This document shows, piece by piece, positions 31,902 to 34,954 of a stretch of DNA of 64,000 nt. The notes under the pieces were generated by a model. It ran no database searches and was not told the origin of the DNA. It saw nothing but the letters and a program-made list of their open reading frames with translations. Location of the stretch: the NCBI RefSeq assembly GCF_041886205.1, contig NZ_CP169029.1; one strand, written 5' to 3'. Position numbers and translations under genes: made by a program. Position 1 is the stretch's first letter; every line of letters starts with the position of its first letter. The stretch comes from Escherichia coli (GTDB lineage: Bacteria > Pseudomonadota > Gammaproteobacteria > Enterobacterales > Enterobacteriaceae).

Positions 31902-32596
31902 TTGTCGGTGTACCTCTCTCGTTTGCTCAGTTGTTCAGGAATATGGTGCAGCAGCTCGCCGTCGCCGCAGTAAATTGCGGCGTGATTCGGCACTGATGAA
32001 CCAAAACAGCACAGCAGCACATCGCCCGGCTGTGCCGCTGACAACGGCACCTGATACAGCCCCGTCGCCTCCAGATTGCGTTTCACCCACGAAGCATGGC
32101 CGCCATTGTCACCAAGAAAATCCCCGCCCTGCGACATAGCGATGGAAAGAGCAGGTATTGATTCGTAGTACGCCAGCATTTCAGAAAGGATCGCATCCAG
32201 TTTCCTTATCGGAAAATAGGCCTGGTCATAGTTGCGATCCACCCGAAACTGGAACTCGTGATAATCATCATCGAGCTGAATGAAGTATTTACACCCGACC
32301 AGTTTTGCCAGGTCGAAACAGGCATTACGGGCGTAAAAAATTGAGCGGCGGTCACAGAAATTATCGGCTTCGTCAAAACGACTGGCGATATCGGCTTTGG
32401 AAAACACCAGCACCTGTTCACCAAATTCAGCCATGTACTGATGCCGTGTCTTATCTTCATCATCAACAACGATAAAAATTTTCCCGGTATAGCCAGCACG
32501 ACGCAACGTCCGGTAAGTCAGAACTTTGTCCGGTCGCCCGTGAGTCAGAATAAAGGCGCAAAAATCATCACGCATATTCCTCCTCCTCACCACCAT
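31799..32596 (-). CDS. chimeric ORF: unknown N-terminal domain fused to the C-terminal part of tail assembly protein K
   Basis: last ~95 aa (LEATGLYQVPLSAAQPGDVLLCCFGSS..) match the lambda K C-terminus; first ~170 aa do not resemble K. Confidence 0.6.
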   Translation of the reverse strand: MVVRRRNMRDDFCAFILTHGRPDKVLTYRTLRRAGYTGKIFIVVDDEDKTRHQYMAEFGEQVLVFSKADIASRFDEADNFCDRRSIFYARNACFDLAKLVGCKYFIQLDDDYHEFQFRVDRNYDQAYFPIRKLDAILSEMLAYYESIPALSIAMSQGGDFLGDNGGHASWVKRNLEATGLYQVPLSAAQPGDVLLCCFGSSVPNHAAIYCGDGELLHHIPEQLSKRERYTDKWQRRTHSLWRHRAWRASAFTGIYNDLVAASTFV

Positions 32597-33359
32597 GCAT
32601 GATCTCCACCATGCGCTGCGTCATCCGGACAAATCCATTTTCAATAGCCTGCTGATAATCAATGATCACCAGCGCCGACTCCTCGAAAAAACACTGAATT
32701 TCAGCGGGGGCGTGAGCGTAATAGTCCGCAATTCTGCTGAAATTAAACACCGTGTGACGTTCTGCCGCACACAGGAGGAATTTCTCAATATCAGGCTCAA
32801 GGGAAGCCAAACGTATCCGGCTGATCAGCTCCTGCGTTTTCGTATCGTCGTACAGTTCACTGATATCCGGTTTACCGCCCGACGGCTCATAAACAGGCGT
32901 ATCAATTTTCGTCGTATACGGCTCCTCCTCATTTCCTGTACCGGGCAAAACATCCGTCAACAGTTCATCAATTTCTGTCGGGATGAAGCCTGTCAGGGAG
33001 ACATCAAAATCAGCATTGATTAGGTCCGACAGCTCCATCCGCAACAGATCTTCATCCCAGCCAGCATTCATCGGCAGGCGATTATCTGCCAGGCGGTACG
33101 CCTTTTTCTGCTCATCCGTCAGGCCAGACAGAACAATGACCGGAACAGAATCCATTTTGAGCATTTCAGCCGCCATAACACGACCGTGACCCGCAATAAT
33201 TTCGCCCTTTTCGTCAATCAGCACCGGATTAGTCCAGCCGAATTGCTTAATACTTTCTACCAGTTGTGCCACCTGCTCAGGGCTGTGCGTCCTGGCGTTG
33301 TGCGCATACGGTGACAATTCTTGTAATGGGCGATAGACTATCTTTAATTTCTCGCTCAT
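32568..33359 (-). CDS. ParB-like nuclease domain protein (Rac ynaK-like)
   Basis: 263 aa; N-terminal ParB/Srx-like motif (..GWTNPVLIDEKGEIIAGHGR..). Confidence 0.65.
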   Translation of the reverse strand: MSEKLKIVYRPLQELSPYAHNARTHSPEQVAQLVESIKQFGWTNPVLIDEKGEIIAGHGRVMAAEMLKMDSVPVIVLSGLTDEQKKAYRLADNRLPMNAGWDEDLLRMELSDLINADFDVSLTGFIPTEIDELLTDVLPGTGNEEEPYTTKIDTPVYEPSGGKPDISELYDDTKTQELISRIRLASLEPDIEKFLLCAAERHTVFNFSRIADYYAHAPAEIQCFFEESALVIIDYQQAIENGFVRMTQRMVEIMHGGEEEEYA

Positions 33360-33496
33360 ACATCCTTGCTTTATGAATAAAACGCACCCCAGCAGCCAGT
33401 GCTACTGGGGGCGGAGGTGTTGCTGGTAAAGTTAGGTATTGGATCAATGAGTGAGTCAACATAATATTAAACTCACAATTATAAATCAGCCATATA

Positions 33497-34954
33497 TTAG
33501 GAGCGCCAAAAAAAACCTGAAAACAAAATAATAACAGGATAAATTTCAAGGCGACCAAGAATCATAGCTATGCACATTAAATATTTTGCAATGTCATTAA
33601 GCACTCCGAATGACGATGCAGTAGCCCCAAAACCTAATCCCATATTATTAATACATGCAGCCACTGTTGCAAATGATGTAAGAAAATCATATCCCATACC
33701 ATTTAACACCAGTATAAAAAACACCGTGAAGAGAGTATAAAGAAAAAAGAAACTCCATACAGACCTCATTACACGATCTGTAACTATCTTCCCTCCTACA
33801 TTTACACTCAACAACGCTCTGGGATGAGAAAGCTGATTTATCTCGTGTTTGCTTTGTTTGAAAAGTATAAGAAATCGAAGTGACTTAATTCCACCACAAG
33901 TTGAACCTATACATCCCCCAAAGAAACTTGACAACAGCAAAAACACTATCGTGTGCGTGGGCCAGCTTGCATAATCCTGCATAGCTAAACCATTATCAGT
34001 GAGCATGGAGCTGGCAAGAAAAAACGAATGAATAAAACTTCCATGCAAGTCATACATACCTATATGCCAGACCTGGAAAGAGGTAACAATGATCACCCCT
34101 AAGGCTATTAACAGAAAGAAACGAAGTTCAATATCTCTGATTAAAGGTTTTATCGTTTTCCTGCTAATAACAATATACCAAAGAGTGAAGTTGAAAGCCG
34201 ATAGCAGGGAAAAAGAACCAGCCACCAGCTCAACCAAATAGTTATTAAAATATCCGATACTCTCGCTATGAGTTGAGAAACCACCAAGCGAAACTGTGGA
34301 AATCCCGTGACAAATAGCATCAAACAAAGGCATTCCTGCAAGTCTATAACAGACAATACAAGCAATACCTAATAAAGAATAAGTTATCCACAGTGTCCGT
34401 GACGTATCGGCCAGGCGGGGAGTGAGTTTGTCATCCTTAAATGGCCCCGGCATTTCTGACTGATAAAGCTTTGCACCACCAATACCCAATAATGGCAATA
34501 CAGCAACCGCCAGAACAATAACTCCTAAACCACCTATAAAATTTAACTGTGACCGATAGTACAAATATGCCCGAGGTAATGAACTAACATCATCAATTAC
34601 AGTTGCTCCTGTTGTTGTTATTCCAGAAACCCCTTCAAACAGAGCATCAATGAACGTTAAATTAAGTTCTGAGTCAATCCATAAAGGGAATGCACTAATA
34701 ACAGAAAACAAAATCCAAAACATTACAATTATAATAAACCCATCACGGGTACGTAATTGAATGCCAGATTTCTTAGTTGTATACCACGCTCCGCCACCAA
34801 TGCAAAAAAATATAACGAAAGTTATAAAGAAAACGAACAGGCTTTTTTCTTTATAAAACAATGCTACAACCATTGGTGGCAACATTGAAAGACTATAGAG
34901 CCAAACCAGGAACCCACACATATGAGTAACAACTCTTACATGAGATGTATTCAT
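33497..34954 (-). CDS. trkG: TrkH/TrkG-family potassium uptake protein (Rac trkG-like)
   Basis: 485 aa polytopic membrane protein with Trk pore-loop glycine motifs; AT-rich; start taken at MNTSHVRV. Confidence 0.85.
   Translation of the reverse strand: MNTSHVRVVTHMCGFLVWLYSLSMLPPMVVALFYKEKSLFVFFITFVIFFCIGGGAWYTTKKSGIQLRTRDGFIIIVMFWILFSVISAFPLWIDSELNLTFIDALFEGVSGITTTGATVIDDVSSLPRAYLYYRSQLNFIGGLGVIVLAVAVLPLLGIGGAKLYQSEMPGPFKDDKLTPRLADTSRTLWITYSLLGIACIVCYRLAGMPLFDAICHGISTVSLGGFSTHSESIGYFNNYLVELVAGSFSLLSAFNFTLWYIVISRKTIKPLIRDIELRFFLLIALGVIIVTSFQVWHIGMYDLHGSFIHSFFLASSMLTDNGLAMQDYASWPTHTIVFLLLSSFFGGCIGSTCGGIKSLRFLILFKQSKHEINQLSHPRALLSVNVGGKIVTDRVMRSVWSFFFLYTLFTVFFILVLNGMGYDFLTSFATVAACINNMGLGFGATASSFGVLNDIAKYLMCIAMILGRLEIYPVIILFSGFFWRS

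Follow-up and report, generated by a model that had tools for sequence, protein, structure and literature searches.

YnaK in a mosaic Escherichia coli prophage: a full-length ParB-like protein, probably orphaned from a TAGT glycosyltransferase partner

Introduction

The TAGT family of glycosyltransferases was reportedly defined by Iyer et al. in 2013, and its describers are said to have counted in the trypanosome base-J glucosyltransferase (JGT). Phage glycosyltransferases of the GT-A type with R...DDD...ED motifs glycosylate DNA and resemble the trypanosome enzyme (bioRxiv 2023.12.21.572611). The corresponding Pfam family, PF20691, includes the beta-glucosyl-HMC-alpha-glucosyltransferase of phages T2 and T6, which places a second glucose onto glucosyl-hydroxymethylcytosine DNA (PMC13216743). 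A second group of proteins connected with DNA modification is formed by phage ParB-like proteins, without which their cognate thymine dioxygenases do not act on double-stranded DNA (O'Toole et al., PNAS 2026, PMC13229309). The same paper mentions an earlier suggestion that modification enzymes are guided to DNA by ParB homologues, and reports that glycosyltransferases, ParBs and terminases are often found next to 5mYOX pathways. The present analysis concerns the trkG-ynaK region of a prophage in which a ParB-like gene, ynaK, adjoins a fragment of a TAGT gene. The region lies in a stretch of 64,000 nucleotides of an Escherichia coli chromosome (contig NZ_CP169029.1), referred to below as the window.

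A preliminary description of the window had noticed, in 32568-34954, an AT-rich trkG-like gene followed by a gene for a 263-residue ParB-like protein, and had treated the two as one Rac-like accessory module in which the role of the ParB-like protein was unclear. Both open reading frames (ORFs) are confirmed on the minus strand. The single module does not hold, as trkG is optional in related phages and the ParB-like gene pairs with a TAGT gene. The question of its role is largely answered by this neighbour, which had been overlooked: the TAGT gene has been cut short and joined to tail gene K (31799-32575), and the ParB-like protein has thereby lost its partner. It is considered probable that YnaK served as partner or activator of the TAGT enzyme in a late glycosylation cassette, that it is orphaned in this element, and that trkG is retained cargo.

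ynaK and the truncated TAGT gene

The ynaK gene (32568..33359, minus strand) starts with ATG, has a good Shine-Dalgarno sequence and encodes a full-length ParB/Srx protein of 263 amino acids. It contains no frameshift and no internal stop, as the preliminary description had supposed, and it has the same length as the 792-nucleotide ParB/Srx coding sequence WP_001291094.1 of the intact Rac prophage. The ynaK gene of strain K-12 encodes only 87 residues; the window carries the full-length form. In NZ_AP045833, the RefSeq genome closest to the window, whose Prokaryotic Genome Annotation Pipeline (PGAP) annotation was converted to window coordinates, ynaK is split into a gene labelled 'partial' (L001 13403-13660) and a 'hypothetical protein' (12869-13339). 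The frameshift suggested by this label was considered and ruled out. The label is an annotation artefact, because the ORF is open and the 1001 bp aligned in the ynaK region do not differ between NZ_AP045833 and the window. Probably the split arose from the 87-residue K-12 YnaK serving as the naming model.

Directly downstream lies the 5' part of a TAGT gene (32078..32575, minus strand; 166 codons), which matches PF20691 with an E-value of 1.5e-24 and 87.6 bits (cut-off 27.5) and covers profile positions 4-151 of 205. Its start codon overlaps the ynaK stop by 8 nucleotides (ATGCGTGA), as expected for translational coupling. The fragment ends at R166 (GHASWVKR, followed by NLEATG), compared with 310 residues in intact homologues, and continues in frame into the 3' end of a lambda-type tail gene K encoding a C40/NlpC-P60 peptidase (31799..32077, minus strand; NLPC_P60, E 2e-7). 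The resulting chimeric ORF (31799-32596, minus strand) encodes 265 amino acids, with TAGT sequence in residues 15-175 and NlpC/P60 sequence in residues 178-242. PGAP gives this chimera the ordinary name 'GREB1-related protein'.

The fragment keeps R14 and the DDD motif (D102-D104), and loses K167, M169, N170, N187-E188-D189-V190, T216-Q217, R258, H260-H261 and W265. Half of the invariant TAGT columns (28 of 56) fall after position 166 and are absent from the window. Judged by these losses, the TAGT gene of the window is a dead pseudogene fragment whose complete catalytic core is lost. Similarity to genomes with an intact TAGT gene starts at window position ~32076. A single deletion has thus taken TAGT codons 167-310, the gene for a 69-residue protein (p69), both terminase genes, the head genes and most of the tail genes.

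Pairing of YnaK and TAGT in related loci

The undamaged arrangement is seen in the intact Rac prophage at ttcA (strain EC16), where the gene order is essD-rrrD-Rz-trkG-ParB (263 aa)-TAGT (310 aa)-p69-TerS-TerL-portal...tail tube-ydaY-tape measure, TerS and TerL being the small and large terminase subunits. The TAGT protein of this Rac has the accession WP_001204037.1. The intact order is also present in loci L002 and L165. K-12 ydaY was considered as a possible TAGT remnant and rejected, since ydaY of intact Rac lies between the tail tube and tape-measure genes.

The association of the two genes was examined in both directions. In the forward test, 79 viral loci were found with YnaK. All of those that contain a full-length ParB gene and downstream DNA have TAGT as the next gene, followed by p69-TerS(-TerL), and the TAGT start overlaps the 3' end of ynaK or lies at most 2 nucleotides from it. 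Conversely, searching with a TAGT profile gave 80 viral loci (52-99% identity), and a YnaK-family hidden Markov model built from 93 sequences was applied to these. Of the 80 loci, 78 have a YnaK-family gene as the immediate upstream neighbour on the same strand, the gap ranging from -4 to 39 nucleotides; in the remaining two, the YnaK C-terminal domain is found 756 nucleotides upstream. The pairing extends to distant relatives of YnaK: four such homologues with 40-45% identity, derived from metagenomes of marine and other origin, all have TAGT as the next gene. In three of these four a terminase gene follows the pair. The fourth, L172 (577-4245), instead has a UDP-galactopyranose mutase gene (GLF) and a second glycosyltransferase gene, of the GT1 family, after ParB-TAGT, which hints at a longer glycan, possibly with galactofuranose.

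The pair is further present in Lactobacillus phage phi jlb1, Lactobacillus delbrueckii phage c5 and the archaeal halovirus HHTV-2; in phage c5 the two genes are the first after cos. In a comparison of TAGT alone, matches were also obtained to Nocardia and large Vibrio phages. Among named phages the pair is infrequent (36 of 50,697 records). The commonest Pfam families among the ORFs flanking 20 diverse loci are terminase large subunits. The two genes, ParB and TAGT, thus form a nearly obligate pair, which stood beside terminase genes wherever this was checked.

Locus L082, a viral contig, contains two ParB-like genes, in the stretches 2975-4325 and 5965-7567. The second, of 250 residues, pairs with TAGT; the first, of 212 residues, is followed by a 243-residue ORF that may encode another glycosyltransferase.

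Architecture of YnaK

The assignment of YnaK to the ParB/Srx fold in the preliminary description is borne out by sequence and structure. YnaK scores 28.9 bits against Pfam ParB_N (PF02195; gathering cut-off 26.3, E 1.2e-6, residues 23-90), and a phmmer search matches it to Spo0J (1vz0) with an E-value of 2e-5. Along its entire length it matches phrog_620 (E 6.5e-90). The AlphaFold2 (AF2) model has a mean predicted local distance difference test score (pLDDT) of 84.6 and consists of a confident N-terminal domain (residues 1-135; block-mean pLDDT at least 90 for residues 11-130), a low-confidence linker (below 50 for residues 138-153) and a confident helical C-terminal domain (residues ~165-230). 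With Foldseek, the N-terminal domain retrieves structures of ParB, Noc, KorB and PadC, of which several contain bound nucleotide, at E-values from 1e-7 for the best to 1e-4; sulfiredoxin (Srx) and a serine kinase appear further down. ParB and KorB chains align to the model with root-mean-square deviations of 2.5-3.0 Å over ~140 columns. Nothing supports the 'nuclease' part of the earlier label, and the domain matches nucleotide-binding domains of the ParB CTPase type.

Four residues of the N-terminal domain, N21, G57, R60 and N93, are invariant in 80 family members and correspond to boxes I, II and III, which form the nucleotide pocket. Also invariant in these members are Y148 and Y157 in the linker, and A211 and Y214 further on. 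The two linker tyrosines are part of a motif, Y-T-x-K-I-x-x-P-x-Y-E-P, in a linker that is partly disordered.

The N-terminal module is not confined to YnaK-type proteins. A model of type II DNA methyltransferases (PADLOC MTase_II) aligns through its N-terminus with residues 10-144 (E 2.6e-38), and the module matches phrog_498, 'DNA methyltransferase' (E 1e-50). In loci L076, L077 and L079, within L075-L081, it forms the N-terminus of proteins of ~460 residues (56-60% identity), encoded ~0.7-1.4 kb upstream of a terminase-large-like ORF of ~597 residues. By these matches, the ParB domain is a module that occurs in other DNA-modifying enzymes too. For the C-terminal 124 residues no Pfam family was found, the best E-value, 0.034, being below the cut-off. 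In some phages the linker motif and C-terminal domain occur alone, as a protein of ~134 residues adjoining TAGT, which marks the C-terminal domain as the TAGT-specific part. Locus L143 (4607-8191) has two tandem pairs of a 134-residue protein lacking the ParB domain and a TAGT gene, and these are followed by a 357-residue protein with a radical-SAM-like CxxxCxxC motif.

The location of ynaK, found beside terminase genes wherever this was checked and immediately behind cos in phage c5, together with the database labels 'ParB-like nuclease' and 'partition protein', would fit a role in packaging or partition, in which YnaK is a site-binding protein or nuclease that aids terminase at pac or cos, or acts in genome segregation, with TAGT being incidental. 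Several features of the protein and its setting make such a role very doubtful. No helix-turn-helix (HTH) domain was found by Pfam or in the AF2 model, which has three short helices (103-135) followed by the linker. The N-terminus (MSEKLKIVYRPLQ) lacks the ParA-binding motif LG[KR]GL, and no parA gene is annotated near ynaK in any locus examined. Moreover, these prophages integrate and are not plasmids, the versions without any ParB domain still pair with TAGT, and the tight coupling to TAGT would stay unexplained. The low number of phage records with the pair also argues against a general packaging component.

Expression and conservation of ynaK

A terminator-like hairpin with a U-run (33387..33410, minus strand) is located ~28 nucleotides upstream of the ynaK start. 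Its 10-bp stem has 7 GC pairs and its folding energy is -25.5 kcal/mol (z -3.85), a stability that none of 200 shuffled sequences reached. A promoter scan, in which sites were no more numerous than in shuffled sequence, gave no promoter-like site between the hairpin and the ynaK start codon. The hairpin and U-run occur at the same place in a trkG-less phage (L012 ~5923-5978), and the last ~70 nucleotides before ynaK, hairpin included, are common to trkG-plus and trkG-less phages. The hairpin is a terminator-like element that opens the ParB-TAGT-terminase block.

The databases hold dozens of YnaK fragments that are 91-100% identical and whose ends are scattered between residues 93 and 201. N-terminal TAGT fragments are found likewise, several of them fused to tail, Lom, terminase or K sequences. 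The fact that ynaK has been cut at dozens of positions in E. coli, K-12 included, argues against selection on the full protein.

These data bear on the possibility that YnaK works on its own in the lysogen, as a DNA-binding regulator, a stress or antibiotic-tolerance factor or an element of defence or anti-defence, and has been kept together with trkG. Its intact ORF and good Shine-Dalgarno sequence speak for such a function, as do the diverse roles of ParB-fold proteins on mobile elements (PMC12704722) and the reported induction of ynaK by kanamycin and ciprofloxacin, together with raised minimum inhibitory concentrations (MICs) of six antibiotics on over-expression of the 87-residue K-12 protein (PMC12924614). 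The MIC effect, the only functional result reported for ynaK, was however obtained by over-expressing a truncated fragment. The hairpin directly upstream without a promoter-like site after it, the truncations in other E. coli and the fact that relatives are essentially never found without TAGT all count against an independent function, and the PADLOC defence models gave no match apart from the shared methyltransferase N-domain. An independent function is on balance unlikely.

Acceptor of the glycosyltransferase

The model of the 310-residue TAGT homologue has a predicted template modelling score (pTM) of 0.70 and shows a GT-A fold. The best matches among structures in the Protein Data Bank (PDB) are GT-A enzymes (K4CP, SpsA, GpgS and SunS), with TM-scores of only 0.34-0.43, and a PDB sequence search with TAGT gave no match. 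The 310-residue homologue has the R...DDD...ED motifs, and intact homologues carry PF20691.

A search was made of the annotations for enzymes that could supply a hydroxymethylated acceptor. No 5mYOX/TET-JBP, thymidylate-synthase-like or other hydroxymethyl-pyrimidine enzyme is annotated in intact Rac, viewed from the integrase to the tape-measure gene, or in the whole of phage c5. Nor does such an enzyme occur among the 25 families shown for 20 loci, a set from which 30 single-member families were left out. As no hydroxymethylating enzyme is annotated in these, possible targets are a canonical base, a mark made by the host, and a protein.

Glycosylation of a protein is therefore a possibility to be weighed. 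The invariance of the linker tyrosines makes it worth considering that YnaK itself is glycosylated, at Y148 and Y157, in a priming reaction like that of glycogenin; alternatively a virion or packaging protein could be the target. Besides the missing source of hydroxymethyl-pyrimidines in the intact Rac region and phage c5, this agrees with the position of the two tyrosines in a low-confidence linker, with the fact that their motif and the C-terminal domain make up the minimal TAGT partner, and with the UDP-galactopyranose mutase and second glycosyltransferase of L172, which resemble glycan-building pathways. In addition, the eukaryotic TAGT-family homologue GREB1 is reported to O-GlcNAcylate a protein (PMC7968844). 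On the other hand, the cited prokaryotic and viral enzymes of the TAGT or GT-A type act on DNA, the N-terminal domain of YnaK is the module fused to DNA methyltransferases in other prophages, and additional sugar-pathway genes are found in DNA-glycan pathways too. A protein target is regarded as improbable.

Proposed function of the ParB-TAGT cassette

The preferred reading, in which YnaK is the partner or activator of TAGT, can be formulated as follows. Decay has left two unrelated things side by side in the window, trkG and ynaK. In intact phages ynaK is the first gene of a ynaK-TAGT cassette upstream of terminase, which would be transcribed with the late operon. YnaK contributes a nucleotide-binding domain of the ParB CTPase type and a C-terminal domain specific for the TAGT partner, and would recruit, load or activate TAGT on replicated double-stranded phage DNA, late and before packaging. 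The sugar mark could then shield the phage DNA from host nucleases. In the window the deletion has killed the cassette, and would have left YnaK as an intact but orphaned and probably poorly expressed remnant. Since the partner TAGT has been cut in half, the ParB-like gene is most likely a relic without a working role. That it is orphaned is further suggested by the strong hairpin and U-run upstream, the absence of a promoter-like site after them and the many independent truncations.

A number of observations weigh against this proposal. The box II sequence of YnaK is G57-H58-G59-R60 (GHGR) as compared with GERR, and the catalytic glutamate of CTPase ParBs is missing. In the 5mYOX system, mutations of the nucleotide pocket did not abolish activation (PMC13229309). 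The acceptors of the cited DNA-acting TAGT enzymes are hydroxymethyl-pyrimidines or their glucosides, for which no biosynthetic enzyme is annotated in the genomes above, and the TAGT acceptor may not be DNA at all. As read from gene order, moreover, the co-location of YnaK and TAGT amounts to co-inheritance, not activation. Finally, ynaK is still intact in the window and its 87-residue K-12 fragment has the MIC effect described above; a small chance of residual YnaK function is accordingly allowed for.

A more speculative extension, put forward tentatively, is that a YnaK-type protein (minimally the Tyr-motif linker and C-terminal domain) and TAGT form a self-sufficient glycosylation system beside terminase that needs no hydroxymethyl-pyrimidine precursor. 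The sugar would be placed directly on canonical DNA bases or on protein, possibly on the YnaK tyrosines. If true, such chemistry would be new for lambdoid E. coli phages, as well as for the archaeal virus and the many further phages in which the pair occurs.

As a locus the window is ordinary and its parts are already in databases; real novelty potential lies in the cassette only. The window holds merely a broken remnant of it, and intact copies are found in other E. coli, for example in intact Rac. The analysis nevertheless gives a setting to YnaK, an unexplained y-gene fragment in K-12, as one half of a widespread ParB-glycosyltransferase cassette beside terminase. Not until 2026 were ParB-like proteins shown to activate DNA-modifying enzymes, and then for dioxygenases only. 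A version coupled to a glycosyltransferase, without a hydroxymethylating enzyme, would extend the activator principle, and could uncover a new glycosylation, of DNA or of protein, among temperate phages whose hosts are E. coli, Lactobacillus and haloarchaea.

trkG

The trkG gene (33497..34954, minus strand) encodes a Trk-system K+ transporter of 485 amino acids (Pfam TrkH PF02386, E 1e-143, aa 46-489). In K-12, TrkG takes up K+ together with TrkA/SapD. The window protein is a full-length TrkH-family membrane protein and the ortholog of K-12 TrkG, to which it is identical in 483 of 485 positions (99.6%), the differences being T325M and C458Y. The GC content of the gene, 0.35-0.41 as compared with 0.47-0.50 on both flanks, agrees with its earlier characterization as AT-rich.

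Of the 79 viral loci that YnaK had retrieved, 27 showed a trkG gene. It was not detected in 43 related loci with upstream DNA long enough to judge, nor in the majority of related loci in which ParB-TAGT-TerS is otherwise kept. The trkG-less relatives have a different lysis cassette upstream of the ParB gene. A search for insertion scars or direct repeats flanking trkG yielded short AT-rich chance matches only. Its non-detection in the 43 judgeable loci and its low GC content mark trkG as an optional moron, a working-looking gene that appears to be retained as cargo. It would have been acquired horizontally and have entered a Rac-type lambdoid phage at a point between lysis cassette and packaging genes.

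In viral loci with trkG, ynaK/TAGT deletions are seen in 12 and intact genes in 6; without trkG, 4 loci are truncated and 37 intact. This enrichment of truncations (12/18 versus 4/41, Fisher p 1.8e-5, for samples that are not independent) agrees with late genes having been lost repeatedly while trkG was kept, and suggests repeated prophage domestication around this gene. The independent deletions ending just past trkG would offer a clean example of domestication around a useful cargo gene.

Prophage setting

The prophage is integrated at att-lambda, between ybhB/bioA and ybhC, in a chromosomal region with rhlE, moa and bio on one side and ybhC, mod and gal on the other. It is a mosaic of lambda-type int/xis, a DLP12-like block (emrE, ybcN, ninE, ybcO, rusA, quuD, an OmpC-like porin gene, essD, rrrD and rzpD), the Rac-type trkG-ynaK segment and lambda-type tail remnants, and it also carries an Ea8.5 family gene, ren and a fragment of replication protein O.

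The upstream border of the trkG-ynaK region is formed by the rzpD-like Rz spanin gene (35092..35568, minus strand; Pfam Phage_lysis, E 3.7e-53; 'lysis protein rzpD' in NZ_AP045833), with which the lysis cassette closes. The gene for the o-spanin lipoprotein Rz1 (35151..35336, minus strand) lies within Rz in a different frame; it is a 61-residue ORF with a lipobox-like LVVVGC sequence, at the position where rzoD/rzoR is annotated in relatives. A lysozyme and a P21-type holin gene lie upstream of Rz/Rz1. Downstream of ynaK, remnants of tail genes K, I and J are followed by lom, stf and tfa. This places trkG and ynaK between lysis and tail genes, as first described, in a decayed element from which the head genes and most tail genes have indeed been deleted. 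The tail remnants (29176..31802, minus strand; PGAP notes of NZ_AP045833 and window ORFs) comprise a truncated assembly gene I joined to a TipJ/J gene. According to these notes, the gene I remnant (31398-31802) is without its C-terminus and the TipJ/J remnant (29176-31401) without its N-terminus; their I'/J' junction (~31398-31402) is a second internal deletion.

Three other features of the element were observed. A gene for a sensor-domain diguanylate cyclase (26348-27679, plus strand), of very low GC content (0.29-0.34), lies between ybhB and the tail-fibre assembly gene and is probably prophage-end cargo. To our knowledge it is absent at the corresponding K-12 site. An IS3-family insertion sequence is present at the ybcN end of the prophage (~39950-41170; orfA 39952-40278), as deduced from an alignment gap of ~1.2 kb relative to NZ_AP045833. 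The OmpC-like porin gene (36853-37935, plus strand) is located between the Q antiterminator gene and the holin gene, on the strand opposite to the late genes, at the position that nmpC has in DLP12.

Comparison with known systems

With the ParABS, Noc and KorB proteins YnaK shares the conserved box II arginine and the box I and III asparagines. It differs from them in having no HTH, ParA-binding motif or parA, in the GHGR sequence, and in its C-terminal domain, which belongs to no Pfam family. The fusions of ParB_N to DNA methyltransferases (phrog_498 and PADLOC MTase_II; Kaljevic et al., PNAS 2025, PMC12704722) contain the same module as YnaK residues 1-144. In these fusions the module is part of the enzyme, whereas YnaK stands alone as a protein, has a C-terminal domain of its own and is coupled in translation to a glycosyltransferase.

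The 310-residue homologue has Pfam membership, the GT-A fold and the R...DDD...ED motifs in common with the TAGT family (the T2/T6 enzyme, the 5mYOX-associated GT-A enzymes, JGT and GREB1). The cited DNA-acting members use a hydroxymethyl-pyrimidine or its glucoside, while for the Rac-type cassette no enzyme making these is annotated. Compared with the family, the window TAGT is cut short, and neither its ED motif nor its C-terminal half is left.

The functional parallel closest to the proposed role is 5mYOX176/ParB176 (PMC13229309), which, like YnaK, involves a ParB-like protein encoded beside a post-replicative DNA-modifying enzyme, often near terminase. By their published description, ParB activators of the 5mYOX type have a domain for nucleotide binding together with a C-terminal domain and no DNA-binding domain, and the AF2 model of YnaK shows the same organization. 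The partner of ParB176 is a dioxygenase; that of YnaK is a glycosyltransferase, with no dioxygenase annotated in the intact Rac region or in c5.

At the level of the locus, the nearest relative is the Rac prophage of K-12, and the likeness to Rac proposed in the preliminary description stands for one segment of the element. Direct inspection of K-12 rzpR'-rzoR-trkG-ynaK (b1362-b1365) shows the same gene order, a TrkG that is 99.6% identical and the same hairpin between trkG and ynaK, and the late structural genes are deleted downstream, as in the window. The element as a whole is not Rac. Rac lies at ttcA and has intR/xisR, recET, racR and ydaSTUV; the window prophage is a DLP12/lambda/Rac mosaic at att-lambda with a lambda-type int and a DLP12-like late region, which has the Rz-trkG-ynaK late segment of Rac and neither its integration site nor its characteristic genes. 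The two also differ in how much of the cassette has survived: K-12 has an 87-residue ynaK and no TAGT fragment, whereas the window retains a ynaK of 263 residues together with 166 TAGT codons.

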